The notes under the pieces are model-generated. The model was not told where the DNA came from. It did not search any database and saw nothing but the letters and a program-made list of their open reading frames with translations. Below, piece after piece: positions 1-58,520 of a stretch of DNA of 64,000 nucleotides. Positions within the stretch are counted from its first letter, which is position 1. Each line of letters begins with the position of its first letter. The position numbers and the translations under genes were made by a program. The DNA is from Candidatus Kapaibacterium sp. (GTDB taxonomy: Bacteria; Bacteroidota; Ignavibacteria; Kapaibacteriales; UBA2268): positions 66,235-130,234 of the forward strand of contig JBAYUQ010000001.1 of assembly GCA_041675005.1 (NCBI GenBank), given 5' to 3'.

Positions 1-111
1 AGTCGTCTTTCCTGACCTATAGTTGTCAAACTAATTCTAGCCGAACCCATTTGACTGCTACAAATATAGCAATAATTAATTAATTATTAACATATTTAGG
101 GAGTAAAAATT
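1..111 (+). promoter_or_regulatory. Conserved leader/promoter element, copy A (probably truncated by the window edge), upstream of cassette A.
   Basis: ~90% identical to 50286-50401 and 54076-54193 (motif agtcgtYtttcctgacctRtagttgtcaaactaattct...ccgaacMcatttgac...acaaatatagcaataatta...ttattaacatattt). Contains a TTGTCAAA/TTTGAC inverted repeat. TTTG and TAatTAtT boxes ~19 nt apart resemble a Bacteroidota-type -33/-7 promoter. Confidence 0.6.
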
Positions 112-27138: not shown

Positions 27139-27232
27139 GTCTTTATACCGTGTTATTTATTAATTATTTATCTTTTATAGAGTTTAGACAGATGATTCAA
27201 GTAAATCCTTCGGTGAGAGTCTCTTTTAATTG

Positions 27233-30405: not shown

Positions 30406-30661
30406 ACTTATTCTAATACATTGTAATTATAAATTATATAGTTTAGACAGATGATTCTGGTAAATCCTTCGGTGCGGGATGTTTTAATTATAAAGGATAG
30501 GGTAAGTAAAAGAGTGGGGGAGTTGAATACTTCTCTAATTCACTGAGTTGGGTTATGTTAGTTAGATTCAGTAAATATAGTTTTGAACTATCATAAGATT
30601 TAGAATTACATGTGAACCCAAGCTTTGCTGGTAATTTTTGTTTTAATTTGTATCATATAAT

Positions 30662-32646: not shown

Positions 32647-33285
32647 TTATTCCTTCAAAACCATATCTATACACATAACAGCTGCTAGTATAAGAAGACG
32701 AACGGGGTCATTTTGGGGTACAGTTGGTTCTATCTCTAGCATATAGTTGTCGGCACTAGTGAACAACTCTCGACCTATCCCAGCCCATTTCTTAGCAACA
32801 TGAGCTAACTTGACTTCACCTTGACTGAAATCAAAATTCCAGCTTGTCCATTTCCCTTTGAGAGAGCAAACCACATTATCCGCAGCATCAAGCACATCGA
32901 ACTTCCCACCAATAGAGAAGAACTTCTGTTTGAAGCGGCCAAATAAGACATCATTCTCATCGAATACTTCCACGTTAGACAAGAAAATGGAAATACCTCG
33001 CTTTACGGTTAATACCTTTCTTCCATCAGCAGTTTTTATCTCTATATCGAATGGTGTTGCACGCTTATAGTCGGTAAATCTAAATATCTTGGTGAATATA
33101 CCGAGCTTTTCTTCTCTGCAAGTCATAATCATCTGCTGAGTATTCGGGTCGAATATATCGTAGTTATTCGCTGCTTTAAATATTCCTCTGTGTTCTTTGA
33201 CGAAGAATAAGTTTTTATTGAGTATTGGATTCATTGGGGTTCCTGTGTTAATTATTATCACATTTAATGGTAAAATAAAGCTCAA
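32647..33285 (-). CDS. Scramblase/LURP-one-related (tubby C-terminal-like) protein. The true start is probably the internal Met (MNPILNK...).
   Basis: Beta-barrel tubby-like pattern ...FDI...ADG..VLTVKRGISIF...; the annotated start may be over-extended. Confidence 0.5.
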   Translation of the reverse strand: MSFILPLNVIIINTGTPMNPILNKNLFFVKEHRGIFKAANNYDIFDPNTQQMIMTCREEKLGIFTKIFRFTDYKRATPFDIEIKTADGRKVLTVKRGISIFLSNVEVFDENDVLFGRFKQKFFSIGGKFDVLDAADNVVCSLKGKWTSWNFDFSQGEVKLAHVAKKWAGIGRELFTSADNYMLEIEPTVPQNDPVRLLILAAVMCIDMVLKE

Positions 33286-33319
33286 TTTACATAAAAATTG
33301 AGCTTTAATTGAGATATTT

Positions 33320-34306
33320 CTAATTCGGCAATGTAAATTGCTTCAGCCAATTCCAATTAACTTGTGCACCAATCATCCAATGATTTTTCCCGTTTGGATA
33401 TTGATGCGTCAGATCTTTTATATATGCGAAATTGAAATTATTTGTTGTATTGCCATCATTTGGTACAAATGTAGCATAGACTACTGTATTAGTATCTCCA
33501 GAAATAGTATAATTTGGATTCAAATCAAAGCTTTTTATATGAGTCTGAACTATCTTATATGGTTGGTATTCAGCTGATGATAATACTTTATCAAATTCTG
33601 ATAATGGAATAAATGGACCAGTATTCGCAGGACCATAATCTCCATTACCAATTTGAAATAATATTGGTAATTTTCTTACAGGATTACTCATTGTATCTAA
33701 ATCGAATAATGCACCACTTTCAACAATTGCAGCAATCTTATCACCCATAAGTATAGATAGTTTGACACACATTTGTCCTCCATTTGAGAATCCCACAAAA
33801 TAAATCCGTTTAGAATCTATAGTATATTCTTTACCAAGTTCATCAATAATCTGTCTTAGAAATTTGATATCATCGGGAGGAGTAACATTTGAACAGTATT
33901 CAAAAGAGCAAAATGGTATGCTATTCCATTTTGTAATCTTTTTTTGTCCATCTTCATCGAGAATACAATAATTCATGGATGAAGGAAATACGGAAATAAA
34001 ATTTTCTTTTTCACCCAACTCCTTCCAACCTGAGGTATTATAGAACCTTTCACCATCTCCACCAGTTCCATGGAGCATAAATACTACTGGAACATCCGAT
34101 TTACCGTCATAGCTTTCTGGTATGCTTACTATGTATTCTCGTTCAACGTCATCAACAATTGTGGTAAATTCATTTTTCCCGTTTTTGATAACTGGATCAA
34201 CAATTTCATCTTTTTTATTACAACCTATAAATACAAATGAAATTGTTAAAAATAGTAATAATTTTTTCATACAAATACCTTTATTTATAAAAAGTGAATA
34301 AGTCAA
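33320..34306 (-). CDS. Esterase/PHB-depolymerase-family lipoprotein (alpha/beta hydrolase). It probably starts at the internal ATG (MKKLLLFLTISFVFIGC).
   Basis: The track start is a TTG; 12 codons downstream there is an ATG with a classic lipoprotein signal. HGTGGDGERF oxyanion region; GFSNGG nucleophile elbow. Confidence 0.75.
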   Translation of the reverse strand: MTYSLFINKGICMKKLLLFLTISFVFIGCNKKDEIVDPVIKNGKNEFTTIVDDVEREYIVSIPESYDGKSDVPVVFMLHGTGGDGERFYNTSGWKELGEKENFISVFPSSMNYCILDEDGQKKITKWNSIPFCSFEYCSNVTPPDDIKFLRQIIDELGKEYTIDSKRIYFVGFSNGGQMCVKLSILMGDKIAAIVESGALFDLDTMSNPVRKLPILFQIGNGDYGPANTGPFIPLSEFDKVLSSAEYQPYKIVQTHIKSFDLNPNYTISGDTNTVVYATFVPNDGNTTNNFNFAYIKDLTHQYPNGKNHWMIGAQVNWNWLKQFTLPN

Positions 34307-34790: not shown

Positions 34791-34987
34791 TTGTAAGGAT
34801 GATAAAGATAGATGAATGTAGGATATTATTCAAAATTACATTCTTTGTATTTGGTTTAGTTTTAGTAATTTCTTTTCCTCCTCAAAATATCACTTATTTG
34901 TAGCTCATTTGATTCACTTTTGTTGCTCAATTTACATAATATTTGAGCTTTATTTCAAATTATTTTGAGCTACAAATTAAAAATAAA

Positions 34988-35992: not shown

Positions 35993-36195
35993 TCTGTATT
36001 ATTTTTAAGCCTATAACTGAAATTTTCAGTTTATTTTGTTGGTAATAATTTATTTAAAGGAATTCAAATAATTTGATTTGATGAAATTTATAAATATAAT
36101 TTCTTATTAATTAAGCTTTTTAATCTGTATCTCATTTGATCCACTTTTGTAATACAAATTACACAAAAAATGAGTTTTATTTCAAATAAATTTTG

Positions 36196-36232
36196 GCTTC
36201 AAAAAAAAAGACTACCTTGTGAGTAGTCTTCC
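36196..36232 (-). terminator. Rho-independent terminator downstream of clpP.
   Basis: Minus strand: GGAAGACTACtcacaagGTAGTCTTTTTTTTT. Confidence 0.75.
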
Positions 36233-42675: not shown

Positions 42676-42897
42676 ATTTTTTCTTGTTTTGGATTTCTAA
42701 TAATCCGAAAATTAATCATTTTTGGGGGAATATTTATAGAATTGAATATATTTCTTAACGAGAAATAGTAACAAAATATTAATAATATTAAATTAAATTC
42801 GGCAAAATGAAAAAATAATTAGGTTATTTCATTATTTTTTTTTTTAGTTTCAATTAAATTTTTATTTTAAATCAGAAATTAGTGGGAAAAAATAATA

Positions 42898-43035
42898 AAG
42901 GTCAGAAAAAACTTCGTGGGTAATTCCTGACCTGTATTTATCATCTAAAATTGCACACCTCAAATGATATTTACAAATTTAATGAATTATCCTCAAACAA
43001 TTAAATAAATATTAATTTTTATAGGAATTTCAGAA
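42898..43035 (+). promoter_or_regulatory. Degenerate copy of the cassette leader element upstream of cassette B.
   Basis: ggtcagaaaaaac...cctgacctgta retains the GTCAG/CTGAC inverted repeat and the ttatagg box; the central part has diverged. Confidence 0.4.
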
Positions 43036-44016
43036 ATGAAAAAAATTACAAACATATTGATTGCTCTTGGAGTAACACTATTCCTTCTGACAGTTGGGAT
43101 GAAAAGCGAGGCGGAGGCACAAACACCGCATTGTGATGGTGATCCATGTGTGAATGCTTCTGCTTGTGGTTCTTGGATTCAAGCACCAGATTTACCCATC
43201 CCATTAGACCCAAATTGCCCTTCTTGTATTATGACAATTCGTTACAAATACAGGGATAACTCTGGGTGTAATAATCCATGTCCTAATGCACCTAAATTTG
43301 AATTCCAAATAGATTATGTAGTAACAGATGGTTCTTGCTTTTATCCTTGCAATGGAAACCCTGCTCAGTATAGTTTTAGTCAGATGGATAAATTATATAT
43401 GGAAGCAGTATTTCAGTTAATTAAAAAATATTCATTACCATTTATAACTGTTCCACCGAATCCACCTTTAGGGTGTGGACCTGTTATTCCGAACTTTAAA
43501 GGGACTTCATGTAAAAAGCAATATATTGCTCCTGACGGAAATGTATATATTTTGACTTGTTTTCTAACTGAATGTTGCGTTCAAAATCTTCAATTCTGTG
43601 TAGATATAAACGGTAAAGAGACTATGACTAAGGCTAATATTTATTCGCCGCCTGATAATTGTGGTACTGATCCCGATGGTTTAAGTTGTACTTATTCATG
43701 TGACTGGGAATGGGAAGAATCATTAGTACCAAAAGAAGTGAAAGCACTTCCAAATAATATTTATGATAATTATAAAGTAGATTATACTATTGACCCAAGT
43801 AATTTGAATATAAAATTAGAAGGAGAATTAAATGGGAAGCTTTCTCTAAATATCTTTAGCACTGAAGGTGTTAGTAATATTTATGAAGTATTCAACGTAA
43901 ATGAGACAAGTTTTGAAATTAACTTAGATAATAATTTTACCAATGGTGCTTATTATATGGCTTTCAGTCTCAACGGTGAATTAATTAAAGTTGAAAGTTT
44001 CATGATAGTAAAATAA
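43036..44016 (+). CDS. Cys-rich secreted protein with a T9SS-like CTD; cassette B, gene 1.
   Basis: Signal peptide. NCPSCIMTIRYKYRDNSGCNNPCP and TECCVQNLQFCVDING modules are homologous to the 112-1692 protein. C-terminal ...LSLNIFSTEGVSNIYEV...GAYYMAFSLNGELIKV. Confidence 0.75.
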   Translation: MKKITNILIALGVTLFLLTVGMKSEAEAQTPHCDGDPCVNASACGSWIQAPDLPIPLDPNCPSCIMTIRYKYRDNSGCNNPCPNAPKFEFQIDYVVTDGSCFYPCNGNPAQYSFSQMDKLYMEAVFQLIKKYSLPFITVPPNPPLGCGPVIPNFKGTSCKKQYIAPDGNVYILTCFLTECCVQNLQFCVDINGKETMTKANIYSPPDNCGTDPDGLSCTYSCDWEWEESLVPKEVKALPNNIYDNYKVDYTIDPSNLNIKLEGELNGKLSLNIFSTEGVSNIYEVFNVNETSFEINLDNNFTNGAYYMAFSLNGELIKVESFMIVK

Positions 44017-44034
44017 CAATTCTGAGGTTTTGAT

Positions 44035-45486
44035 ATGATTAAGTATATATTACTATTATTACTAGCAAATAGCTCAGTATTCTCTGTTGATTTTAATAAA
44101 TATGATTTTACTCCATTATTGGTAAAGGAGGGATTTATATTAGAGCAAATCGAAACAAATAGTACTGGTAACATTATTGTATCTGGATATAATAAAATAG
44201 GCGATGATCCTCAAACTCATATTTTTAATAATGTGGTATTGAAATCAATTGATAAGGGATTAAATTGGACTATTATTTATTTAGATTCCAATGAAACTTT
44301 ACCCAAATCTGAAAGGAGTTTCTACAATGTTGAAGAATTGAAGTATTTGGATAACGGTAATATATTACTTTTTTCTCATACAGGGTATATTTTACAATCG
44401 TTTGACGATGGTGAGACTTGGATAAGAGATTCATTAGGTGTGTTCAAAACTCCAGTACAGGTCGAATTTATTGATAGTGAAAATGGTATTGCACTATTTT
44501 TTAAATCTTATGATAAGAAACTTACTACAGAACTATACTTGACAAACGATGGTGGAATGAATTGGAACGAATTAAATGTTCCAGTAAACGCTTTACTTGA
44601 ATATGAAACAGAATTAAGAATAGGGGAGTTCTATTCTTTCGGTGAAGGTACTATTTCATTTTTTATGGTTGATCGTCATTACGAAAATGATTCATTGATT
44701 GAATCAACGAATTACTTAATCAGTTCTCCTAATTATGGTACAACTTGGGAAAAGGAGATATTTAATTTGCCTGTGGAACGTTCAAGAATAAAGTTTTTAG
44801 ATGATAAGTATATTATTCTATTTGGTATTTTGCAATCCAAAACTCATTTTGACAATTTAGGAAATCCTTTTGGTCACGATATTGTTTTGGAGAGCTTCGA
44901 TAGAGGGACTTCTTGGGATACACTTTTAATTAATTTAGATACTAATGTTAATTCTAGTATACAAGGTAGTCTTGAGTATGTTGATGAAAAATATTTATTA
45001 TTCAGGGGGGCAAACTCTGGCATAAGTATTTTTGACAGAGGAAACAAAGGTATTATAGCCCTTTACCCAAATAATATCTTAGAATTAAGAGAACAGTACA
45101 ATTATCAGAATAGCTACGATTATATAAGATTTGGAGATAAAATACTAGTTACTGGTGGTGGTGGTTATCTTTTTTATGTTGACTACAAAAGTCCGATAAC
45201 TTCGGTAGAAGATTTGTTTAGTCAGTCTGAATTAGAGATTTATCCAAACCCAGTTTCTCGTAGTCAATCTATTAATTTAAAATTAGCCCCAGTAGCATGG
45301 GGTATTTCTACAATTTCTATTATTGATATGAATGGTAGAACTATTTCCTCTTTTGATAGGAACTTAACTTCTATTTCAGAGACTTTAGAAATCAATCCAA
45401 ATAATAGTTTGACTTCGGGTCTGTATTTTGTCCAGATTGAATATCCAAACGGATTTGTCGATAGACAGAAGTTTATCGTCAATTGA
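44035..45486 (+). CDS. Asp-box/BNR beta-propeller protein with a T9SS CTD; cassette B, gene 2.
   Basis: SIDKGLNWT, SFDDGETWI, TNDGGMNWN, SPNYGTTWE, SFDRGTSWD; C-terminal EIYPNPVS...GLYFVQIEYPNGFVDRQKFIVN. Confidence 0.8.
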   Translation: MIKYILLLLLANSSVFSVDFNKYDFTPLLVKEGFILEQIETNSTGNIIVSGYNKIGDDPQTHIFNNVVLKSIDKGLNWTIIYLDSNETLPKSERSFYNVEELKYLDNGNILLFSHTGYILQSFDDGETWIRDSLGVFKTPVQVEFIDSENGIALFFKSYDKKLTTELYLTNDGGMNWNELNVPVNALLEYETELRIGEFYSFGEGTISFFMVDRHYENDSLIESTNYLISSPNYGTTWEKEIFNLPVERSRIKFLDDKYIILFGILQSKTHFDNLGNPFGHDIVLESFDRGTSWDTLLINLDTNVNSSIQGSLEYVDEKYLLFRGANSGISIFDRGNKGIIALYPNNILELREQYNYQNSYDYIRFGDKILVTGGGGYLFYVDYKSPITSVEDLFSQSELEIYPNPVSRSQSINLKLAPVAWGISTISIIDMNGRTISSFDRNLTSISETLEINPNNSLTSGLYFVQIEYPNGFVDRQKFIVN

Positions 45487-48096: not shown

Positions 48097-49248
48097 GTGG
48101 AATATATGAAAAAACAATACATAATCTTATTTGTCAGTCTAGTTATGCTTTTTGCAATAAAAAGCGAAAGCATTGCACAAAATGACATAGCAAGTTCTCG
48201 TCAAAATGCGATAACTCGAGCAATAGAGAAAGCTAGTCCTGCCATTGTAGGTATAAACGTAACAGAAGTAAGGCAGGTACTATATCGTAATCCTTATGGA
48301 GGTACTTTATTCGAGAGATTTTTTGGTAAGCAAAGAGATAGAGTACGTGAGTATGAAGTAAAAGGACTCGGTTCGGGGTTTATCATCTCTCCTGACGGAT
48401 ATATCCTAACTAATAACCACGTAGCTGGCAATGCAAAGAAAGTAGTTATCACAACCACTGACGGCAAGAGATACGATGCCGAAATTATAGGCACAGACCC
48501 AGCTACCGATATTGCTTTGCTAAAGATAAAATCTGATGATAAACTACCATATATACAATTCGCAAATTCCGATGATTTGATAATAGGTGAATGGGCTATT
48601 GCACTAGGTAACCCATTTGGACTATTCGATATAAATGCAAAACCGACTGTAACAGTTGGAGTTATATCTAATAAAGGCGTGAACTTCCTAGAGGAGCAAG
48701 ACAAACGGTTAACTGTTTACAAAGATATGATTCAGACCGACGCAGCAATAAGCTCGGGTAACTCTGGTGGACCTTTGGTGAATGCCGAAGGGAAGGCAAT
48801 AGGTATGAATACAATGATTTTTTCAACAGCTCAATCTCAATCGGGTTCAGGTAGTATAGGAATTGGGTTTTCCATTCCTATCAACAGAGTTAGCCAAATA
48901 GTTGAGTTGATAAAATCAAAGAAGGTTATTAACCGCAATGTTTTCTTAGGACTAGAAATACAAGAAATTGACGACAAGGTGATATCTTATCTAAACTTAC
49001 CAGACATAAGAGGAGTAGTTATATACTCTACACAAAACAACGGTCCAGCGAATAGAGCAGGGTTAGAACCCGGTGATGTGATACTTACAATCAATGGTCG
49101 GAAAGTGATGAGAGAAGATGATTACTATATTGAAATATATGATAGCATGGTCGGAGATACTATGGAATTTCAAATCCTGCGTGGAGATAAGGAAAAAACT
49201 ATTAAATTGCAGTTAGAAGAACCCCAACAAAACAGAAGATATAGATAG
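48097..49248 (+). CDS. HtrA/DegP-family trypsin-like serine protease with a PDZ domain.
   Basis: Catalytic motifs TNNHV, D.ALLK and GNSGGPL; C-terminal PDZ. Confidence 0.85.
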
Positions 49249-50009
49249 TGGAAGAAGGCAAATCAGTTCTATCAGCACAAGGACTAATCAAAATCTATGG
49301 CAAACGAACAGTTGTCAAAGGGATAGACATAGAAGTAAAGCAAGGTGAAATAGTCGGTCTGCTTGGTCCCAACGGAGCTGGTAAGACTACAGCCTTCTAT
49401 ATGATAGTTGGTATGGTTCGACCGAATAAGGGTATAGTACGAATAGATGATAAAAAGATTACCCGTAAGGCGATGTACCAACGCGCTAGAATGGGTATTA
49501 GTTATCTGCCACAAGAGCCATCTATATTCCGTAAGCTATCAGTTGAAGATAATATAAAAGCTGTACTCCAGCTACAAAAAGGACTCAGCCGAAAGCAAGT
49601 AAAGGAAAAGTTAGAACAGCTCCTTGAAGATTTTAAAATTGCTCGTGTGCGTAAGAGTAAGGGGTATATGCTTTCGGGAGGGGAGAGACGCCGTTGCGAG
49701 ATAGCCCGAACGCTAGCATCAGACCCCAAATTCATTCTCTTAGATGAGCCATTCGCAGGAATTGACCCTATTTCAGTAGAAGATATTATGGATATTATCT
49801 TTGCTCTTAAAAACAAGGGAATTGGAATACTAATCACCGATCACAACGTCCACGAAACTCTGTCAATCACTGATAGAGCTTACATTCTAATAGACGGCAG
49901 TCTATTCACGAGCGGAAAATCCGAAGAAGTAGCTGCTAATCCTGATGTCCTCAAGTTTTACCTCGGCGAGAATTTCCGCTTGGAAAGATACGTACCTAAA
50001 GACCTATAA
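49248..50009 (+). CDS. lptB: LPS export ABC transporter ATP-binding protein.
   Basis: Walker [10 protein letters not shown]; signature LSGGERRR; Walker B ILLDEP; GTG start overlapping the htrA stop. Confidence 0.85.
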
Positions 50010-50130
50010 GCAATAAGTAAATTCGCCACTTTTGCCTACTTTGTTACTAATTCAACTCCCCCTTAACTCTAGTTATAACATTTATATACAATTGTTGATA
50101 AAAGCTGCTTGTTTTTTAAAATAAATTTGG

Positions 50131-50145
50131 ATTTTATTTTATTTT
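50131..50145. repeat. (ATTTT)3 pentanucleotide tract in the cassette C upstream region.
   Basis: ggATTTTATTTTATTTTaaac; the homologous position in the duplicate copy (53896-53935) carries 8 units. Confidence 0.8.
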
Positions 50146-50278
50146 AAACTTGATACAAATGAAATTAATCAATATTTGTAAACTGTTCTATAAAATGAAT
50201 TACAAATGAATCCAACAACAAAGCACCACTCATCTGGAGGCAAAAAGTGGTTTTCAAATTCTAGTAGATATAAAAAAA

Positions 50279-50401
50279 GTCAGAAAAAACGAAAGTCGTT
50301 TTTCCTGACCTGTAGTTGTCAAACTAATTCTGACCGAACACATTTGACAGTCACAAATATAGCAATAATTATTTATTATTAACATATTTATAGGTAAGCA
50401 A
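50279..50401 (+). promoter_or_regulatory. Conserved leader/promoter element, copy C.
   Basis: 13-bp imperfect inverted repeat GTCAGAAAAAACG-aaagt-CGTTTTTCCTGAC (50279-50309); TTGTCAAA-N19-TTTGACAG inverted repeat; putative -33 TTTG and -7 TAatTAtT boxes; ends at the ATG. Confidence 0.6.
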
Positions 50402-51001
50402 ATGAAAACTCTAAAATTTATCTTATTAAGCGTAGTTGTTTTTATTATAACTATTAATTTCTCTAATGCCGCTCCTTGTCCTTTAGGACAAAGTACTGTT
50501 TATAAGACTTTCCTAATAACTTACAACGGTGTATCTTGTTGGGTTGAAGCACAAATCTGTGCCGATTGTGATATTACTGGAAGTAATGTATATTTAGCAG
50601 TGAACGACATAAAAAAACCAAGTTACCCAGGAATTCCAACAGCCATAATTTATCAACAAGTTGCTGCTCAGTTATCTGAGAATGTATTTGAAATCTGTCA
50701 AATTGAACCTTGTAGTTCTCCTACAACTTCAAAAGTTTACGTAAAAACACCAGTTTGTGTGAAAAAATCTGCTGTTATGGAATTTGGAAACCTTTATATT
50801 TATATTATACCTTGTGATTGGAGTGCATACTATGAAGTTTATACACAAACTTGTTTTGATCCAATTTTGGATGACTATATAACAACACCAGTTGGTGTAG
50901 AAAAGTTTGGAACACCAAGTTGTACTGCGTTAGCCGAACCAGGCGATCCAGCTATAGATAACGTTACAGATTGCTACCAACAAGACTGTTTTCAAGATTA
51001 A
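50402..51001 (+). CDS. Small Cys-rich secreted protein (no CTD); cassette C, gene 1.
   Basis: Signal peptide (..SNA/AP); 14 Cys; C-x2-E-x3-C-x2-C and P.IP...I..Q...Q.S modules shared with the 54194-54838 protein. Confidence 0.7.
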   Translation: MKTLKFILLSVVVFIITINFSNAAPCPLGQSTVYKTFLITYNGVSCWVEAQICADCDITGSNVYLAVNDIKKPSYPGIPTAIIYQQVAAQLSENVFEICQIEPCSSPTTSKVYVKTPVCVKKSAVMEFGNLYIYIIPCDWSAYYEVYTQTCFDPILDDYITTPVGVEKFGTPSCTALAEPGDPAIDNVTDCYQQDCFQD

Positions 51002-51014
51002 TAATAATAGAAAT

Positions 51015-53444
51015 ATGAAATACATTTTAATTCTTATAGCTTTAAGTACTAACCTTATAGCACAGCAATTCAATATAACCCCTTTGAGTATTAATTTCAA
51101 TGGGGTTATATCTATTGATGATAATATAGTTATTTATGGTGATAACGGTTATTATTATTTCTCTCAAGATGGAGCAAATAATTGGGAACAAAGACTGTTG
51201 CTTGAGCAAAAGAACATTCGCAAAATACAAGAGAATAATGGCGTACTTTATGGTATTTTGGAAGATGGTTATCTGATCAAATCAACTAACAAAGGGTTAG
51301 ATTGGAGGATAACGAAATTTGAAAATGATACTAGTATGAAATTTGTTACTATGGATGTAAATGATAAAAATGTATATGTCCGAGGCATAGACGAAATTTT
51401 AAAATTTGACTTAGATTTTAACTTAGTTAAAAGATATAAAAATTCAATTCTAAACTATTATGGGCCATCCCTAATCTTCACTTATGATGTGAATTTAATA
51501 AACAAATTCATACAGTATTATAATGGTTATTTAGTTGTTCCTCTACAAAATGAAAATTATCTGATTTTAAACGATGAATTAGAATATATTAAGGAAGTCT
51601 ATCTCATTGATTCTTTAGATGCGATTGATGACCCAGATGCTAGATTGATAGATATGATTGTATATGGTGATGAATTATTAGTCACTCTTGATGGTCCCAT
51701 TAAAAGTGGATTAGACTATTTTATAATAAATGAAACAAATCTACTCGGGAAGTGGGATGAAATAGTTCTTAGTAAAGATAGAAAAAGACTTTTATTTAGT
51801 AGCTTTAAAAATGAACTTTATACTTTAGAATTTAGTGTTGAAACTAATGAAGAAGATGTTGGAAGTACTTGGAGATTTAAGGCAAGTGTTAGTAAATATA
51901 GATTACGAAAATATAATAAAGTTACTAATGATTTTGATTCAATCGGGGAATGGTTTGATTCATTTTTTGTTCTTGGTTTAACTAGAGTTACAGAAAATGG
52001 ATACTCGCCTATTTATACAAATAAACCAAATATAACATCGGATTCAACTGTATTAGTAGTTGGTGATAAAAAAACTATTCTTACCTCACAATATGGTAAA
52101 AACTGGAATTTATTCTCTTATATTGAAGGAACTCCTAGTCAGATATTTAATGATAACGTCTATTTGAATAAAGGTATTTACGCTTCTACGACGAAAGACG
52201 GTGGACTATCAAGCACAAATAGGCGAATAGTAGATACTACTGATTGTCATTATTGCAAATTCACTAATTTTCATCAATCATTTATCAGCCCCAATGGAAA
52301 TGGTTTTCTTTATGGAAGTCCAATTTATGACACTTGGGCTAATATTGGATTTACCAAAGATAGTGGCAATACTTTTGAATTTTCATACAATACTGATTTC
52401 TATTTTAGAACTTTCAAATTTGCAACAAACTTTGCTGAATTAGGAGACGAGTATTGTACAATCCATAATCGAAAAACAACCGCTTCTAACCCTTTGCTTA
52501 GCAGTATGTGGGTTACGTATGCATATTACTTCAATAAAGATGATTTCAGTGATTATAGGATGGAAGTATTAGATACTAACGAATATAGATACTATTACTT
52601 ATTTACTCAAAGTGCGGATTATTATCAACAAGTTAGATATAACTTCGAACAACTTCACCCTAAAGATCAGTTTTTAGAGATAAGGACTACAACTGATGCT
52701 GGTAAGAGTTGGACTTCTTTTCATAAGATTCAGAATTATTCGGAGAATTTTAAGTTTTATGAGCATAACAAAGATAGTTTATTTATTACTAGCTATGGAT
52801 ACACAAGTTATGGGGATTTTGATTATACTAATAGAGTGTATCTTTATGACAGAACGAGAGATGTAGTCGATACCTTATTTAGTGAAGACGAGGTAAATAG
52901 AAAAAATCTGCAACTTGTTTTCTTTGATAATCATTTTTATATAATGGGTGATAGCATACTCAAAGTAGGTAATAAAACTCTAACAGAATGGTCTGATGTA
53001 CAGAATTGGCCAACTCAGAACCCATCATTTGAAGAAGTCTTATCGAATGGAAATGTAATTCTAACTAAATACAAAGATGATACTAGAAAGTCAAAGGATT
53101 TCTATTTAGATAATTATTATAAGATAGTAGCTGATAAAACTACAGATGTCGAAATTACAACTGTTGCGCTTAGAACTTATGAAGCATATCCAAATCCAAC
53201 TACTGGGAAAGTATTTGCTGAGATATATTGGCAATCTGGTTTTGATATATTTGAATCTATCAAAGGTGTTTATGATATATCAGGTAATCTGGTTTCAACA
53301 AGGGAGCAAATCGCATTGACAAAATCCCATAACTATTCTGGATTATTAGAATGGGATAGTAGCTCACATCCGTCCGGGATTTATTTCATTGTAATTAAAC
53401 ATGGGAACAATAAACAATCGATTCCATTTGTGGTGGTTGAATAA
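51015..53444 (+). CDS. Large Asp-box/BNR beta-propeller protein with a T9SS CTD; cassette C, gene 2.
   Basis: SQDGANNWE, STNKGLDWR, TTDAGKSWT, TKDSGNTFE; C-terminal AYPNPTTGKV...GIYFIVIKHGNNKQSIPFVVVE. Confidence 0.8.
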   Translation: MKYILILIALSTNLIAQQFNITPLSINFNGVISIDDNIVIYGDNGYYYFSQDGANNWEQRLLLEQKNIRKIQENNGVLYGILEDGYLIKSTNKGLDWRITKFENDTSMKFVTMDVNDKNVYVRGIDEILKFDLDFNLVKRYKNSILNYYGPSLIFTYDVNLINKFIQYYNGYLVVPLQNENYLILNDELEYIKEVYLIDSLDAIDDPDARLIDMIVYGDELLVTLDGPIKSGLDYFIINETNLLGKWDEIVLSKDRKRLLFSSFKNELYTLEFSVETNEEDVGSTWRFKASVSKYRLRKYNKVTNDFDSIGEWFDSFFVLGLTRVTENGYSPIYTNKPNITSDSTVLVVGDKKTILTSQYGKNWNLFSYIEGTPSQIFNDNVYLNKGIYASTTKDGGLSSTNRRIVDTTDCHYCKFTNFHQSFISPNGNGFLYGSPIYDTWANIGFTKDSGNTFEFSYNTDFYFRTFKFATNFAELGDEYCTIHNRKTTASNPLLSSMWVTYAYYFNKDDFSDYRMEVLDTNEYRYYYLFTQSADYYQQVRYNFEQLHPKDQFLEIRTTTDAGKSWTSFHKIQNYSENFKFYEHNKDSLFITSYGYTSYGDFDYTNRVYLYDRTRDVVDTLFSEDEVNRKNLQLVFFDNHFYIMGDSILKVGNKTLTEWSDVQNWPTQNPSFEEVLSNGNVILTKYKDDTRKSKDFYLDNYYKIVADKTTDVEITTVALRTYEAYPNPTTGKVFAEIYWQSGFDIFESIKGVYDISGNLVSTREQIALTKSHNYSGLLEWDSSSHPSGIYFIVIKHGNNKQSIPFVVVE

Positions 53445-53455
53445 AAATAAATCTA

Positions 53456-53481
53456 AAGGAGCCAACTCGGCTCCTTTTTTC
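53456..53481 (+). terminator. Rho-independent terminator of cassette C.
   Basis: AAAGGAGCCaactCGGCTCCTTTTTT. Confidence 0.75.
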
Positions 53482-53608
53482 TATTTATTCTCCTCTTACA
53501 ATAACTAACTTAATAACAAGTTTATACACCAATCATTATTTGTTTGCAATTGCTTCTTTTTGATAGTAATTTTGCAACTACCTAAAAAGATAATATTTGG
53601 AGATTAAT

Positions 53609-53773
53609 ATGCCATTCGTTCCAGCATCGGACAAAGATAGAGCATATATACTAATAGACGGCAGTCTATTCACTAGCGGAAAATCCGAAGAAGTGGCTGC
53701 TAATCCTGATGTCCTCAAGTTTTACCTCGGTGAGAATTTCCGCTTAGAAAGATACGTCCCGAAAGACCTATAA
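53609..53773 (+). pseudogene. Chimeric 54-codon ORF marking the tandem-duplication junction: gcvPA codons 1-11 fused in frame to the last ~43 codons of lptB.
   Basis: Translation MPFVPASDKDR|[43 protein letters not shown]. The first part matches 57183..., the second matches 49879-50009. The junction lies at the shared GATAGAG microhomology. Confidence 0.85.
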
Positions 53774-53895
53774 TCAACAAGTGAACTTGTTCCCTTGTTC
53801 CAATATTGTCACCCTCCCTATACATTTCTAACTCTAGTTATAACACTGCGATAAAAATGTTAATAAAAAACGCTTGTTTTTAATAAATAATTTGG

Positions 53896-53935
53896 ATTTT
53901 ATTTTATTTTATTTTATTTTATTTTATTTTATTTT
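53896..53935. repeat. (ATTTT)8 pentanucleotide microsatellite in the cassette D upstream region.
   Basis: Eight tandem ATTTT units, versus three at the homologous position 50131-50145. Confidence 0.85.
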
Positions 53936-54068
53936 AAATTTGATACAAATGAAATTAATCAATATTTGTAAACTGTTCTATAAAATGAATTACAAATGAA
54001 TCCATCAAAAAAGCACCACTTAACTGGAGACAAAAAGTGGTTTTCAAATTCTAGTAGATATAAAAAAA

Positions 54069-54193
54069 GTCAGAAAAAACGAAAGTCGTTTTTCCTGACC
54101 TGTAGTTGTCAAACTAATTCTTGCCGAACACATTTGACAGTTACAAATATAGCAATAATTATTTATTATTAACATATTTTGTGGAGTTAAAAA
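54069..54193 (+). promoter_or_regulatory. Conserved leader/promoter element, copy D.
   Basis: Near-identical to 50279-50401, including the GTCAGAAAAAACG/CGTTTTTCCTGAC hairpin (54069-54099). Confidence 0.6.
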
Positions 54194-54838
54194 ATGAAAG
54201 CAACAATTAACAATTTGATTTTTTTAAGTATAACAATATTCGTTGCCAAAAGCATTAATATTGAAGCCAAACCTATTTGTACCAAACCATGGGTAAATAT
54301 CGTAGATACAGTTACAGTTGACGGATGTGATTATGAAATAGATTTATGTGTATACTGTGCATTCGCTTATCCAGGGAAAGTTAAAATTAATTATTATAGA
54401 AATATTAGTGGATGTACACCTACCATACCACCTAATCAAATAACAAATCAAATTATATCTCAAATCTCAACGTATGCCTATTTTTGGTTTGATTATTGTC
54501 AATTCAATTTACCCCCGTGTTCAGGTTCACTGCGTAAAAAAATAGAATGGGATATTTATATATGTTGGAAGGCTAAATTAGTAATTAAAGGTGCGACCCC
54601 ACATGATGATGTCTACCTCCATTTACCTTGTGAAGATAATGATACCTTCTGTCGTGTTACTTATTCTTATTGTGTAGATGAGTTTGCCGTTGTTCATCAT
54701 AATGTTTCTGGATACTTAGGCTATAATTTTGATCCTTCATGTACACTGGAAGGTTCAGCAGTATTCCCTTTACCACCATCCGCTATGGTTGGAGATGAGA
54801 CAGCATGTTACGTTTTACACACGGTATGTAACCCATAG
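54194..54838 (+). CDS. Small Cys-rich secreted protein (no CTD); cassette D, gene 1.
   Basis: Signal peptide; 20 Cys; CVYCAFAYPGKVKINYYRNISGC matches the CxxC-x3-I-x-Y-x-YR-N module of the 112 and 43036 proteins. Confidence 0.7.
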   Translation: MKATINNLIFLSITIFVAKSINIEAKPICTKPWVNIVDTVTVDGCDYEIDLCVYCAFAYPGKVKINYYRNISGCTPTIPPNQITNQIISQISTYAYFWFDYCQFNLPPCSGSLRKKIEWDIYICWKAKLVIKGATPHDDVYLHLPCEDNDTFCRVTYSYCVDEFAVVHHNVSGYLGYNFDPSCTLEGSAVFPLPPSAMVGDETACYVLHTVCNP

Positions 54839-54844
54839 AATAAT

Positions 54845-57001
54845 ATGTATAAATTTCTTATAGTATTAATTTTCATAATCCCTTTTGCATCAAATGCCAA
54901 TATTTGGACTAAGGCGGATGGGCCATTTGGTTATGCTATGTCGTACAATATTTTCAATTATGATAATAATCTATATTCATCTAGTCAATCTAATGGTTTA
55001 TCAGTATATAAATTAGATAATAAAGAATGGACACGATTAGATACTGGTTTCTTTTCTGGCAAAGGATTAATACATTATTTTGATCAAAAAGAAAACGTAG
55101 TACTTACTTCTACTGATTCAGGTATTTATTTGTCCTATAATTATGGAAAGGACTGGAAGCATTTTGATACATTAGGTGGTTTTGATAGATTTCATTTTGT
55201 CACCATTGTTGACGAAACAATATTTTTACAATCCAACCAATTCAGAAGTTTGTATAAACTTGAAAAGGGTTCTGAGACTTTAGAAAAAATATATGCTAAT
55301 GAACAAAAAACAGACTCTATATTTGCTGATGTTATTATAACGAATGATAACTATATTTTTGCTGCTGACCCTGTTAAACATTATGATGTTCAAGATAAAG
55401 AAGGGACATTATATATATCAAGTGACAAAGGAGAAAGTTGGAAACTATCTGAAACAATGAATAAAAAAATCAAGAATTTATTATTTCATGAGGATATATT
55501 ATTAGCCTTTACTGAAGAAGATGGATTATTTAGGTCAACCGACTACGGAAAAAGTTGGACTACTGATACAAATTTAGTAATTAAATCAAATAAAGTAGCT
55601 TCCTATAAGAATTTGATTTTTTCATGTGAGAACGAAATACAAATTTCTACTGATAACGGAATCAGTTGGAAAGTTCAAAACAATGGTTTAAAGTCAATTG
55701 CTTGTAGGGATATTCGTATAGTAAATGATACATTATATTACTTTACAAATCAAAGAATAATATATTATTTCGATTATGAAAATAAATTGTGGATAAGAAA
55801 TACTCCAATTACTGATGACGTGTCTCAAGAGTTTATTTCAGCAGAAAATGATACTCTATTCACAACAGGATCATATACGATAAACTATTCGATTGATAAT
55901 GGATTAACTTGGAGTATATATAGTGATAGTTTGTATTACAATTTTACAAACATTGGAAGAATATATAAGCAAGATAGTGTAATATTTGCCTTAAATCGCC
56001 TTAATTCTTTACTCTTAATCTCGATTGATTATGGACAATCTTGGAGATTTGAAACTTTAGGAAAATCTGAAAATCAACCTTGGATAGGCGATGTATTGCT
56101 AATGGACAATCGAATACTCCTCTTTACAAAGTTTGGTAATTTTTATTCTGAAGATGTTGGTTTAAATTGGGTTGAGTATGAAGGGGAAGTACTAGATAAG
56201 GATGTGAAAGTAAGAAGATATTATAGACTAAGTAATTCCAAAATAATTGTTTATAGTGAGGTAGGGCTTTATCTAACCTATAATAATGGATTAACTTGGG
56301 TCTATGAAAAAGCTGACGAAGAAGTAATGACCCACTACTATACTTACAGAGAAGATAATAATTTATATACAATGGACTTTCTTGAATTTGATCAAATATA
56401 TAAATCTACTAACTTAGGACGTACTTGGGTTGATTTAGAAATAAATATAGAATCTGGTTTAAGGTGGGCTAGTATAATACCATATAATGGTAATTTAATA
56501 TTGTTAACTAGTACTGGAGTTTTTGTTTCTGATAATGAAGGAAAAGAATGGACAAAATATGAGATTAATTTATTTACTCCTGACCAAAAGGAACTTTATT
56601 TCTATAGTGGGTTAATTGTTGATGAGTGTTTAGTATTAACCTCTGCTTATGGTAATTGGCGAGCGAAACTCTCCGATCTTGGAGTTGAAGTAAAGTCTTC
56701 CGTCGAATCAGAAATAGAGCGAAACTATCTATATACTTATCCACCATACCCTAACCCAGCAAAATCAGAGGTAAAGGTTCTGTTTTATTGGGATATAAAC
56801 TTACCAATGACGACAGACGACATTAGCATATATGATATAACTGGTAAGAAAATAGATGCGATTGATAAGATTAGCTTAGTTAAGCAAGAGAGTCATTATG
56901 GCAACCTAATCTGGGATTGCTCTACAGCTCAGCCGGGTATATACCTAATCAACATAAAACATGGCACAGAAGAGAAAACCGTGAAAGTGGTGGTGGAGTA
57001 G
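54845..57001 (+). CDS. Asp-box/BNR beta-propeller protein with a T9SS CTD; cassette D, gene 2.
   Basis: Ten Asp-box-like repeats (SYNYGKDWK, SSDKGESWK, STDYGKSWT, STDNGISWK, SIDNGLTWS, SIDYGQSWR, SEDVGLNWV, TYNNGLTWV, STNLGRTWV, SDNEGKEWT); C-terminal YPPYPNPAKSEV...GIYLINIKHGTEEKTVKVVVE. Confidence 0.8.
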   Translation: MYKFLIVLIFIIPFASNANIWTKADGPFGYAMSYNIFNYDNNLYSSSQSNGLSVYKLDNKEWTRLDTGFFSGKGLIHYFDQKENVVLTSTDSGIYLSYNYGKDWKHFDTLGGFDRFHFVTIVDETIFLQSNQFRSLYKLEKGSETLEKIYANEQKTDSIFADVIITNDNYIFAADPVKHYDVQDKEGTLYISSDKGESWKLSETMNKKIKNLLFHEDILLAFTEEDGLFRSTDYGKSWTTDTNLVIKSNKVASYKNLIFSCENEIQISTDNGISWKVQNNGLKSIACRDIRIVNDTLYYFTNQRIIYYFDYENKLWIRNTPITDDVSQEFISAENDTLFTTGSYTINYSIDNGLTWSIYSDSLYYNFTNIGRIYKQDSVIFALNRLNSLLLISIDYGQSWRFETLGKSENQPWIGDVLLMDNRILLFTKFGNFYSEDVGLNWVEYEGEVLDKDVKVRRYYRLSNSKIIVYSEVGLYLTYNNGLTWVYEKADEEVMTHYYTYREDNNLYTMDFLEFDQIYKSTNLGRTWVDLEINIESGLRWASIIPYNGNLILLTSTGVFVSDNEGKEWTKYEINLFTPDQKELYFYSGLIVDECLVLTSAYGNWRAKLSDLGVEVKSSVESEIERNYLYTYPPYPNPAKSEVKVLFYWDINLPMTTDDISIYDITGKKIDAIDKISLVKQESHYGNLIWDCSTAQPGIYLINIKHGTEEKTVKVVVE

Positions 57002-57027
57002 GAATTCCCAATCACAAAGTAAAAACA

Positions 57028-57054
57028 AAAGGAGCCAACTTGGCTCCTTTTTTC
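57028..57054 (+). terminator. Rho-independent terminator of cassette D.
   Basis: AAAAGGAGCCaactTGGCTCCTTTTTT; one-base difference from the cassette C terminator. Confidence 0.75.
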
Positions 57055-57182
57055 TATTTATACCCATCTTACAATAACTAACTTAATAACAAGTTTATAC
57101 ACCAATCATTATTTGTTTGCAATTACATCTTTTTGATAGTAATTTTGCAACTACCTAAAAAGATAATATTTGGAGATTAAAA

Positions 57183-58520
57183 ATGCCTTTCGTTCCAGCA
57201 TCGGACAAAGATAGAGAATATATGCTAAGTAAAATTGGCGTACAAAATTTTGAACAATTAATAGAAAACATCCCATCTGAAGTACGTTACAGAGGTGGTA
57301 TGGATTTCCCAGAGCAGCTTTCGGAGTACGAAGTAACTCGTCTTATGCTCTCTTATTCTAATATGAATAACTCTGCTTCTTCGCATATCTGCTTTATGGG
57401 CGGTGGTGCTTATGAAAGATATATCCCTTCTATCGTAGGTGATACTATCAACAGAGCTGAGTTTCGTACAGCATATACGCCTTACCAAGCAGAAGTATCG
57501 CAAGGTACTTTGCAGGCTATGTATGAGTTCCAAACTATGATTTGTGAGCTATATGGTATGGATGTTGCCAATGCTTCTATGTATGATGGTGGTACTGCAC
57601 TTGCAGAGGCAGTTCTTATGTCAACAGCAATCAACCGTAAAACAGAATTTGTTTATGTTGGTACTATCAACCCTAACTACAAAGATGTAGTAAAAACAAT
57701 CACACAAGGTAGAAAGTTCACTTATCTAGATGCAGTTGCTGCAGATGGAACTACTGATTTCGAAAAGTTGAAATCGTTACTAAGTGATAAAACTTCTGCT
57801 GTAGTAGTTCAACAACCTAATTTCTTGGGTTCAATTGAAGATGTACGTGAAATAGAGAAATTAGCACATGCTAATGGAAGTTTATTTATAGTTGCTGCCG
57901 ATCCATTCTCAGTTGGTGTATTAGAAGCACCGGGTAACTACAATGCAGATATAGTTATCGCTGAAGGGCAACCTTTAGGTATCCCACTTAGTTATGGTGG
58001 TCCTTACCTAGGTATATTCGCTTGTAAACAAGAATTTGTACGTAAGATTCCTGGACGTTTAGCAGGTGTTACTTCTGATTTAGATGGTAAACGTGGTTTT
58101 GTATTAACTTTACAAACTCGTGAACAGCAAATCAAACGTGAGAAAGCTACATCTAATATCTGTACTAACCAAGGTCTTTTCATGTTAGCGGCCACTGTTT
58201 ATTTGGAAACAATGGGAAAAGCTGGTGTGAAGGAAGTTGCTGAGCAATCATTCCATAAAGCACATTACCTAGCTGAGAGAATTACGGAATTAGATGGTTA
58301 CGAATTATTCAACGATAAGCCATTCGTATTCGAATTTGCTGTTAATGTACCCGGAGATATAGAAGTTCTATTAGATCAAGCAAATGAAGCAGGTTTCTTA
58401 GCTGGTATAAATGTTTCTAAACATGTAAATAGTCCTAACACACTACTTATAACAGTTACTGAAACTAGAACTAAAAAAGAAATGGATGATTTCGTTGATT
58501 TCTTGAAGCAATTCAAATAA
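57183..58520 (+). CDS. gcvPA: Glycine dehydrogenase (decarboxylating) subunit 1 (split P-protein, N-terminal half).
   Basis: 445 aa; ...TAYTPYQAEVSQGTLQAMYEFQTMI... conserved glycine cleavage P-protein region; no gcvPB adjacent. Confidence 0.85.
   Translation: MPFVPASDKDREYMLSKIGVQNFEQLIENIPSEVRYRGGMDFPEQLSEYEVTRLMLSYSNMNNSASSHICFMGGGAYERYIPSIVGDTINRAEFRTAYTPYQAEVSQGTLQAMYEFQTMICELYGMDVANASMYDGGTALAEAVLMSTAINRKTEFVYVGTINPNYKDVVKTITQGRKFTYLDAVAADGTTDFEKLKSLLSDKTSAVVVQQPNFLGSIEDVREIEKLAHANGSLFIVAADPFSVGVLEAPGNYNADIVIAEGQPLGIPLSYGGPYLGIFACKQEFVRKIPGRLAGVTSDLDGKRGFVLTLQTREQQIKREKATSNICTNQGLFMLAATVYLETMGKAGVKEVAEQSFHKAHYLAERITELDGYELFNDKPFVFEFAVNVPGDIEVLLDQANEAGFLAGINVSKHVNSPNTLLITVTETRTKKEMDDFVDFLKQFK

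Follow-up and report, generated by a model that had tools for sequence, protein, structure and literature searches.

The interval between lptB and gcvPA was analysed in a 64,000-nucleotide stretch of DNA (the window), taken from a MEGAHIT metagenome contig of an uncultured Candidatus Kapaibacterium. The interval is occupied by two very different two-gene cassettes for predicted secreted proteins, C followed by D, arranged in tandem. Its features are as follows:

49248–50009, plus strand: lptB (LPS export ABC ATPase; TIGR04406, E 3.5e-111), the left core flank; its last 138 nt (49872–50009) form the left end of repeat copy 1
50010–50401, plus strand: upstream module copy 1, 5′ of cassette C (from alignments; 97% identical to copy 2 over 259 nt)
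50268–50363, minus strand: candidate sRNA gene, copy C (terminator scan, folding and covariance model match)
50402–51001, plus strand: cassette C gene 1, a 199-aa 14-Cys family protein, predicted to be secreted, with a signal peptide (family-profile match)
51015–53444, plus strand: second gene of cassette C, whose 809-aa product resembles a beta-propeller and bears a C-terminal sorting domain for T9SS (Por_Secre_tail, E 3.2e-7)
53449–53608, plus strand: downstream flank copy 1, comprising the cassette terminator (53455–53477) and a duplicated gcvPA promoter/leader (BLASTN, terminator scan), with the gcvPA promoter motif TTTG-N20-TAATTTTG at 53543–53574
53609–53773, plus strand: recombination scar, a 54-aa in-frame chimeric ORF (from the sequence; same ORF in JGI contig L096)
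53774–54193, plus strand: upstream module copy 2, 5′ of cassette D, holding (ATTTT)8 at 53896–53935
54058–54153, minus strand: candidate sRNA gene, copy D, with its terminator at 54101–54067 (covariance model, 117.2 bits)
54194–54838, plus strand: cassette D gene 1, a 214-aa predicted secreted protein of the 14-Cys family
54845–57001, plus strand: second gene of cassette D, whose 718-aa product is a beta-propeller of the BNR/Asp-box type carrying a T9SS sorting domain (BNR, E 1.6e-11; Por_Secre_tail, E 3.6e-10)
57022–57182, plus strand: downstream flank copy 2, comprising a terminator (57027–57051) and the working gcvPA promoter/leader
57183–58520, plus strand: gcvPA (glycine dehydrogenase subunit 1; NF001696, E 2.7e-178), the right core flank; its first 46 nt (57183–57228) are repeated at 53609–53654

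Domain searches detected no recombinase, transposase or toxin/immunity domains in the cassettes or their immediate neighbours. Rfam gave no match in the region (E<=1) or in the whole window (gathering threshold), indicating that there is no glycine riboswitch 5′ of gcvPA and no known RNA in the upstream module.

BLASTN comparison of unit 1 with unit 2 returned two matching blocks, 49872–50389 vs. 53636–54179 (84.6% over 544 columns, including a 25-nt microsatellite indel) and 53449–53654 vs. 57022–57228 (93.7% over 207 columns); it found no DNA match and no common segment between the coding parts of cassettes C and D. In a sliding-window plot (100-column windows) identity was 94–97% in the flanks and 26–51% in the interior, the latter range being noise for DNA of 31% GC, and nucleotide identity between the enclosed genes was ~40%. 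The steps are sharp, falling ~12 nt 5′ of each ATG (50389/54179) and directly after each stop codon (53449/57022). Within the upstream block, a repeat search found 50131–50389 and 53921–54179 to be 97% identical, and the stretch 3′ of the lptB stop codon (50010–50130) is just 56–73% identical between copies. An earlier note on this DNA had described similar flanks around strongly diverged coding regions, and the non-uniform identity bears this out. The flanking repeats that it reported are real; the limits it gave were slightly too narrow, since the repeats extend into lptB (49872–50009 = 53636–53773) and gcvPA.

At the protein level, the two Cys-rich proteins share 27% identity over 73 aa (E 5e-4), and the propellers can be aligned in their last ~100 aa alone, corresponding to the T9SS sorting domain (34%). 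The closest relatives of the cassettes lie in other genomes: C is 88% identical at the nucleotide level to its counterpart in L005 and D is 54% identical at the amino acid level to that in L085, vs. 27% between C and D. The two units are not mutually closest along their whole length, as a simple in-situ tandem duplication would have left them.

In the scar between the cassettes, the start of gcvPA (~13 codons) continues in frame into the end of lptB (~43 codons). The two meet inside a 19-nt microhomology, GATAGAGCATATATACTAA (53636–53654), that relates gcvPA codons 10–15 to lptB; written as GATAGAG(C/A)ATATAT(A/G)CTAA, 17 of its 19 nt are common to gcvPA and the donor lptB. A microhomology junction beside a homologous anchor is the arrangement produced by homology-facilitated illegitimate recombination, and here unit 2 has the homologous gcvPA flank at its opposite end. 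The lptB 3′ fragment contained in the scar (138 nt, 53636–53773) differs from the native lptB 3′ end at 9 positions, every one of them synonymous (dS 0.38, dN 0); for comparison, dS between the window genome and its relatives L003–L005 is 0.47–0.60. The restriction of these differences to synonymous sites indicates that the two units diverged in separate genomes and that one was imported. Sliding identity to L003, L004 and L005 revealed no clear import boundary in gcvPA or lptB, and no donor genome for the imported unit was found. The same 54-aa chimeric ORF is present in an independent JGI assembly (contig L096), in which the order differs (D propeller end, junction, C-type module, D start); either the repeats have truly recombined in this mosaic, or the assembler switched at identical stretches of 35–57 nt.

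In related genomes (L003, L004, L005, L006 and L085), lptB and/or gcvPA likewise border a variable segment, with one different cassette per slot. The L005 slot holds a single C-type cassette whose propeller adjoins gcvPA and is 88% identical at the nucleotide level, the same as its flank. D-family pairs occupy the slots of L004 and L085, a third type of Cys-rich and T9SS pair that of L003, and unrelated small ORFs that of L006. The flank variant GCT is common to the C flank and L005 (and L006), and ACA to the D flank and L004 (and L003), a tracking of cassette type that is based on ~3 sites. Neither cassette is a diverged copy of the other; the conserved flanks mark a slot in which whole cassettes are exchanged between the same core sequences, in keeping with the replacement by other family members that the earlier note had entertained. 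Many such members exist, and were counted as 237 cluster representatives. The variation seen is between lineages, a strain-to-strain exchange of cassettes rather than variation within a clone. With its fixed position between core genes, non-orthologous content, mostly synonymous substitutions at the boundaries and predicted exposed or secreted products, the locus appears to behave like a replacement/additive flexible genomic island.

The interpretation in the earlier note started from the premise that the flanks evolve neutrally, and this premise is not supported: both the gcvPA leader and the upstream module are conserved beyond synonymous sites or cassette coding DNA. The two downstream flank copies are 92.9% identical, which is no higher than the identity of each to the L003 and L004 orthologues (92–93%), and the gcvPA leader is 92–93% identical across species-level relatives with a synonymous dS of ~0.5. 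In L086 and L088 the core of the upstream module is 90–95% identical beside cassettes whose coding DNA is 65% identical. The resemblance of the flanks comes from their nature as conserved core and regulatory DNA and not from a recent duplication, and we propose that the upstream module is a regulatory element common to the whole family and kept by strong purifying selection.

The earlier note had also put forward strong diversifying selection; such selection acting after a duplication is rejected by the C propeller and its L005 orthologue, which give a dN/dS of 0.15 (dN 0.068, dS 0.45), the dS being similar to the gcvPA value. Within a cassette type, purifying selection is ordinary, and there is no acceleration. 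In the D family, propeller bodies and Cys-rich proteins change fast (dN 0.39–0.9) and the sorting domain is 89–92% identical. A recombination mosaic was considered as the origin of this conserved domain and rejected: its dS of 0.85–1.07 is not below that of gcvPA, so that conservation by selection, and not recent exchange, accounts for it.

The first gene of cassette C matched a 14-Cys family profile built without C (E 4.3e-31) and had no Pfam or NCBIfam match. The family is defined by 11 invariant and 3 near-invariant cysteines, and its confidently predicted fold matches no solved structure. By profile comparison, the C and D Cys-rich proteins appear to be anciently diverged members of one large family, and this predicted secreted family, paired with T9SS propellers, appears to be new. 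The first genes of cassettes A and B (see below) were considered as members; their products are Cys-rich and are not detectable members of the family. Both propellers carry the T9SS sorting domain (PF18962/TIGR04183) above cut-off and signal peptides visible in the sequence, and PorU (Peptidase_C25) and PorV are encoded next to cassette A, so that sorting domain, signal peptide and machinery, the attributes of T9SS type A cargo, occur together in this genome. The cassettes most likely specify secreted or cell-surface proteins that are kept diverse among strains.

The upstream module (~330–430 nt) lies 5′ of each cassette and occurs at at least 4 places in the genome. It consists of an (ATTTT)n tract, which is (ATTTT)3 at 50131–50145 in copy 1, a distal hairpin region and a proximal, ultra-conserved core of ~110 nt. 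Two further copies of the core lie elsewhere in the window:

1–109, plus strand: copy A of the upstream core, truncated where the window begins, 5′ of the pair 112–1692 / 1689–3050 and 3′ of porU-porV
42890–42983, minus strand: diverged copy B of the candidate sRNA/upstream core, 5′ of the analogous pair 43036–44016 / 44035–45486 by priA (covariance model, 86.3 bits)

Judged from folding and terminator scans, the module probably encodes a divergently transcribed sRNA of ~80 nt with an intrinsic terminator. On the minus strand, the candidate comprises a TATATTTG box, a 5′ hairpin (GUCAAA...UUUGAC) and a 16-bp Rho-independent terminator with a U-run; 16-pair stems followed by T-runs, as in intrinsic terminators, lie on this strand at 50311–50277 (C) and 54101–54067 (D). 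Copy C folds with a minimum free energy of -31.5 kcal/mol (z -6.26). In an alignment of only 8 sequences, 95.6% of cells were paired and 4 pairs showed double changes, all from copy B; A-to-G variants correspond to G-U on the minus strand and to C-A on the plus strand. A covariance model scored copy C at 113.8 bits, with D and B as listed, and revealed no additional copy among 80 gcvPA neighbourhoods from relatives. A metagenome scan with a first hairpin pattern gave no match, and one with a second pattern recovered two loci, L093 and L094. The TAnnTTTG box is kept in all module copies (TATATTTG, TAAATTTG, TAAGTTTG) and is not clearly enriched 5′ of window genes. The Bacteroidetes-type -33/-7 promoter motif matched 9 times in the window vs. 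3.2 expected. Since the -7 box is no commoner 5′ of genes in the sense than in the antisense direction (1.67 vs. 2.34 per kb), this motif carries little weight.

The distal half of the module is 97% identical between C and D and ~70% identical to copy A, which could reflect gene conversion between the neighbouring C and D modules. The (ATTTT)8 tract at 53896–53935 is the sole perfect microsatellite in the window. The number of units is 3, 6 or 8 among the module copies, ~8 in L003 and 4 in L093, with (ATGTT)6 in L094; the sole same-locus comparison is 3 units in L096, a mosaic contig, vs. 8 in the window. The tract lies ~250 nt from the ATG. A multi-copy sRNA transcribed away from the cassettes and accompanied by a variable tract might couple, or make mutually exclusive, the expression of T9SS cargo cassettes, a speculation to which we give little credence. 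If it were true, RNA-based regulatory variation of the surface, involving the 14-Cys family, would be superimposed on the exchange of cassettes between strains. Literature searches on Kapabacteria and T9SS, and on T9SS and small RNAs, returned nothing relevant.

We consider it likely that a flexible lptB-gcvPA slot gained its second cassette by import from a sister lineage, and that the repeated flanks are core and regulatory DNA. The slot would hold two anciently diverged versions of a cassette in which a ~200-aa 14-Cys protein is followed by a T9SS-exported beta-propeller. A whole lptB′-cassette-gcvPA′ segment from a sister lineage ~6–7% diverged would have been added beside the resident cassette, carrying along core DNA (the lptB 3′ end, and the gcvPA promoter/leader and first codons). 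For this addition, one conserved flank would have paired homologously and the 19-nt microhomology would have been the site of an illegitimate join, either by homology-facilitated illegitimate recombination or by integration of a circularised segment; an equivalent outcome would follow from a microhomology tandem duplication and subsequent homologous replacement of one unit by foreign DNA. The junction, the synonymous-only lptB differences, the different cassettes in this slot of relatives, the constraint on the flanks and the purifying selection within a cassette type are observed, whereas the import route, the choice of immigrant unit and the function of the cassettes are inferred.

The model of the earlier note, in which an in-situ tandem duplication was followed by overwriting of one copy through intragenomic gene conversion, with the upstream module and the terminator as anchors, is unlikely. 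A microhomology tandem duplication would leave exactly such a junction, the multi-copy upstream module is usable as a 5′ anchor, the C and D modules (97%) are more alike than other parts of the flanks, and L096 may show conversion tracts between repeats. Yet the model leaves unexplained a 6–7% difference in the lptB fragment and gcvPA leader, which lie outside any cassette, as well as the exclusively synonymous nature of the lptB changes. Moreover, the 3′ anchor (terminator and gcvPA leader) is peculiar to the lptB-gcvPA slot, there is no second copy of C or D in the window, and the same cassette types occupy the orthologous slot of other genomes. Another explanation is that C and D are true duplicates driven apart by extreme diversifying selection while their flanks stayed unchanged. 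The rapid change of D-family propeller bodies and Cys-rich proteins around a stable sorting domain speaks for it, but C and D each have distinct relatives in other genomes, which places their split before these lineages. There is also no residual DNA similarity across 3 kb, proteins this different would call for far more flank divergence than a dS of 0.38, and C evolves under constraint with a dS equal to that of housekeeping genes; we regard this explanation as extremely improbable.

A contingency or antigenic-variation locus fed by silent donors, as the earlier note had envisaged, is not supported: both cassettes have a full promoter module, start codons and terminators, no coding segments are shared between C and D, no recombinase lies nearby, and there are no silent donor cassettes. 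Programmed antigenic or phase variation, with cassette expression switched through (ATTTT)n or through recombination between the flanking repeats, is quite improbable. It draws on the variable number of (ATTTT)n units and on products that are secreted or surface proteins; against it stand the distance of the tract from the ATG, the failure to demonstrate length variation within a population cleanly, and the absence of truncated donors, an invertase or inverted repeats flanking a promoter. Stitching of alleles from two co-existing strains into a series during assembly is very improbable, even though the source is a metagenome contig, Logan assemblies of one run split each cassette into its own contig of 2.7–3.2 kb at the repeats, and L096 shows a different path through the repeats to be possible. 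Stitched alleles cannot create the unique gcvPA′-′lptB fusion, which is present in two assemblies, and the flank copies differ at enough sites to be separated at k=141.

In gene-conversion systems of antigenic variation such as Neisseria pilE/pilS, Borrelia vlsE and Anaplasma msp2, variable secreted or surface proteins have conserved ends and a variable middle, and several family members are present per genome, features that resemble the cassettes described here. Those systems use a single expression site and silent, promoterless donors, and generate segmental mosaics. The present locus, in contrast, has no lone expression site with silent donors, no segmental mosaics of C and D, and no sign of within-clone switching. 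Its propellers are like T9SS type A cargo in sorting domain and signal peptide, and porU and porV lie just 5′ of cassette A; they differ from described cargo in their consistent pairing with an upstream 14-Cys protein and a preceding conserved non-coding module.

Clonal frames exchange replacement flexible genomic islands through homologous recombination (Lopez-Perez, Martin-Cuadrado and Rodriguez-Valera 2014, PMC4033161). The lptB-gcvPA slot shares with these islands its fixed position between core genes, strain-specific genes for exposed or secreted structures, and mostly synonymous boundary substitutions (9/9 in the lptB fragment). It differs in that a unit has been added rather than swapped, leaving both versions and the scar, and in being tiny, a single two-gene cassette of ~3 kb with its own conserved regulatory module. 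The effector-immunity arrays of the Vibrio cholerae T6SS and the Rhs/CDI orphan modules arise through homology-facilitated illegitimate recombination (Kirchberger et al. 2017, PMC5361080). As in those arrays, a module would have been acquired through one conserved anchor and one illegitimate join with the older module retained, giving a heterogeneous tandem array beyond the reach of duplication alone. Here, however, no toxin/immunity domains were detected, the export route is T9SS, both modules are complete with promoters so that the older one is not orphaned, and the anchor is housekeeping DNA rather than the constant part of an effector gene.

The locus illustrates a general trap, in that identical flanks around unrelated genes need not imply a recent duplication if the flanks are functional, and cassettes of this kind break short-read assemblies at their conserved flanks. 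It would be an unusually clean record of a hypervariable slot gaining a second allele, with a microhomology scar and a synonymous-only donor footprint, and it comes from a poorly known phylum-level group, the Kapaibacteria. It also brings to light a large uncharacterised family of putative 14-Cys secreted proteins consistently paired with T9SS propellers, and a candidate T9SS-cargo-associated sRNA that is absent from Rfam.

The window derives from a 580-kb metagenome contig (ENA ERZ27247358, k141_1852216). Between lptB and gcvPA it carries two tandem two-gene cassettes, units C and D, with the following features:

Features of the lptB-gcvPA interval
49248-50009, lptB, left neighbour of the cassettes
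50402-51001, unit C gene 1, 199-aa protein
51015-53444, unit C gene 2, 809-aa protein
53609-53773, chimeric gcvPA'-lptB' ORF, in frame, 54 aa
54194-54838, unit D gene 1, 214-aa protein
54845-57001, unit D gene 2, 718-aa protein
57183-58520, gcvPA, right neighbour of the cassettes

The 199-aa and 214-aa proteins are cysteine-rich, carry signal peptides and have no match among Pfam or NCBIfam models. The 809-aa and 718-aa proteins are BNR/Sortilin-like propellers with a terminal T9SS sorting domain. Secretion or surface display of the cassette proteins is a supported prediction.

The earlier note described similar flanks around unlike coding parts in C and D, and this was borne out by BLASTN, a sliding-window plot and protein alignment. 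When one unit was compared with the other by BLASTN, a left match (49872-50389 vs. 53636-54179) and a right match (53449-53654 vs. 57022-57228) were obtained, with none outside the flanks. In the sliding-window identity plot, which had been suggested as a check, identity ran at 94-97% over the flanks and fell to the noise level of 26-51% in the 3 kb of coding sequence, with sharp steps ~12 nt upstream of each ATG and immediately 3' of each stop codon. The Cys-rich proteins share 27% identity across 73 residues, and the propellers are alignable in the sorting domain only.

The repeat between the units extends past non-coding DNA into lptB and gcvPA coding sequence. The left flank of D starts with the final 138 nt of lptB, and the right flank of C takes in the promoter and leader of gcvPA and ends 46 nt into the gene. 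These fragments join at 53636-53654 (GATAGAGCATATATACTAA), where 17 of 19 positions match gcvPA (GATAGAGAATATATGCTAA) before the sequence continues as lptB. The chimeric ORF is the scar left where the right and left borders of one lptB'-cassette-gcvPA' segment were joined illegitimately through microhomology. An assembly artefact is ruled out, as stitching two strains together could not produce the chimeric ORF, which is also present in an independent JGI contig (L096, 3300037067). Positions 1-1409 of that contig contain the same junction with the pieces in another order. The end of the D propeller is followed by a right flank that starts as D-type and finishes as C-type; past the junction come an lptB fragment whose sequence changes over to that of the native gene, an upstream module of the C type with 3 repeat units, and the start of D. 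Each switch falls within an identical stretch of 35-57 nt. This order reflects either an assembly chimera or recombination among the repeats in the population, as a real recombinant or a circle.

Compared with the 3' end of native lptB, the lptB fragment has 9 differences, all of which (9/9) are synonymous third-position changes (dS 0.38, dN 0). A dead fragment decaying in place would gain mostly non-synonymous changes; the differences therefore accumulated while both copies were working lptB genes in separate genomes. Their divergence nears the dS of 0.47-0.60 between this genome and species-level relatives (L003-L005). The two gcvPA leader copies are 92.9% identical to each other and equally close (92-93% each) to the orthologous leader in L003/L004. 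A small leader variant block follows the cassette, reading GCT with C here and with the C type in L005, and ACA with D here and with the D-family gene in L004.

Close relatives were gathered by searching genomes with GcvPA. In the lptB-gcvPA slot, L005 has a C-type propeller immediately before gcvPA (88% nucleotide identity, equal to that of its flank), D-family pairs occupy it in L004 and L085, a third pair (Cys-rich plus T9SS) in L003, and three small, unrelated ORFs in L006. A second variable slot adjoins priA and holds pair B in the window (43036-45486) and a D-family pair in L003 (1-3010); one side conserves only 147 nt (42973-43119, ~60 nt of upstream sequence plus signal-peptide codons), and priA forms the other. 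Because differing pairs lie between the same conserved borders in relatives, whole cassettes have been exchanged between borders at the level of lineages. Cassette replacement through conserved flanks, as the earlier note proposed, holds in this sense and does not extend to programmed antigenic variation: tests for the defining features of such loci turned up no silent donors, no segmental mosaics and no recombinase nearby. Strong diversifying selection after duplication was the other proposal, and it is rejected by the C propeller, whose dN/dS ratio against its L005 orthologue is 0.15 (dS 0.45, dN 0.068), resembling housekeeping genes. Propeller bodies and Cys-rich proteins of the D family diverge widely (24-54% identity), and the final 105 residues are 89-92% identical with a dS of 0.85-1.07. 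Since this dS is not lowered, the terminal conservation results from selection, and recent exchange is rejected as its cause.

The non-coding flanks of C and D are similar because both have a function. On the right, the flank consists of the gcvPA promoter and leader, 92-97% conserved among relatives. Leader plus the first ~300 coding nt (57094-57470, in which no riboswitch was found) are 94-97% identical to L003/L004, and the remainder of the gene 80-92%. On the left it is a module of ~330-430 nt with further copies upstream of pair A, which itself follows porU-porV, and in other metagenomes; a diverged copy precedes pair B. Over the proximal ~110 nt of the module, identity remains 90-95% beside cassettes with only 65% coding DNA identity (L086, L088). 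Contigs of other assemblies repeatedly stop 44-124 nt upstream of the Cys-rich gene, as expected of a multi-copy repeat.

Elements of the upstream module
50131-50145, (ATTTT)n tract, copy C, 3 units
53896-53935, (ATTTT)n tract, copy D, 8 units, sole perfect microsatellite in the window
L083 ~9700, (ATTTT)n tract, copy A, 6 units
L003 7640-7690, (ATTTT)n tract, ~8 units
L094 ~4730-4770, (ATGTT)6 in place of (ATTTT)n
53774-53800, L093 5245-5270 and L094 ~4885-4860, palindrome
50268-50363, 54058-54153, 42890-42983 and 1-70, minus strand, candidate small RNA
L083 9864-9959, minus strand, and L094 4519-4613, plus strand, candidate small RNA

A pentanucleotide repeat is retained even where its unit has changed (L094). 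The 5' end of the module is marked by a near-perfect palindrome, AACAAG(G/T)GAAC-TT-GTTCCCTTGTT, which in copy 2 lies immediately 3' of the lptB stop codon.

On the minus strand, the module core has, in order, a TAnnTTTG box, then a 5' hairpin and, beyond a short linker, an intrinsic terminator with a 16-bp stem and a U-run. It is likely, but unproven, that the module encodes a divergently transcribed small RNA. The candidate, about 80-90 nt long and on the strand opposite each cassette, folds into a single dominant structure with an energy of -31.5 kcal/mol (z -6.26) and has no Rfam match. Across eight copies pairing is retained at 95.6% of positions, with double changes at four pairs, every one from copy B; A-to-G variants give G-U pairs on the minus strand only. 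Alternatively, the core might be a bidirectional terminator plus a palindromic operator. In L094 the candidate small RNA also precedes T9SS cargo of another kind, namely an SprB/Ig-like protein.

Two other repeats were seen in the window. An 87-nt intergenic repeat (33251-33337, 34896-34982 and 36123-36209; 63-77% identical) has inverted repeats inside (TTTGTAGCTCA...TGAGCTACAAA). A 51-nt repeat (27165-27215 and 30424-30474; 86% identical), with no Rfam match, lies immediately upstream of two minus-strand genes and may be their shared leader.

A profile search with the Cys-rich proteins recovered 237 cluster representatives, almost all of 195-225 aa. In an alignment of 61 sequences with a mean identity of 28%, 11 cysteines are invariant and 3 nearly so, and 0/61 sequences match Pfam. 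The C protein clearly belongs to this family (E 4e-31 against a profile that excluded it); the products of gene 1 in pairs A and B fall outside it. In other contexts too, family members form pairs with T9SS propellers of ~720 aa, for example beside recJ in L099.

In our analysis, the C-D locus best fits a replacement-type flexible genomic island. In such islands, homologous recombination lets strains swap the genes that encode exposed structures, and the borders gain mostly synonymous substitutions (PMC4033161). There exchange replaces genes, whereas at the C-D locus it was additive. Additive exchange would fit an insertion process put forward for the heterogeneous effector-immunity arrays of the T6SS and for Rhs/CDI orphan modules, which relies on homology in one flank plus an illegitimate join and keeps the older module (PMC5361080); the new unit at the C-D locus would have entered in this way, with the older module retained. 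A possible alternative route to the same product is a tandem duplication in which one unit was later replaced by homologous recombination. Much of the explanation lies in conserved functional flanks around two old alleles, united by inter-lineage recombination, which is more ordinary than the earlier note proposed. The scar between C and D is unusually informative, and two new leads emerge, the 14-Cys protein family and the putative small RNA.
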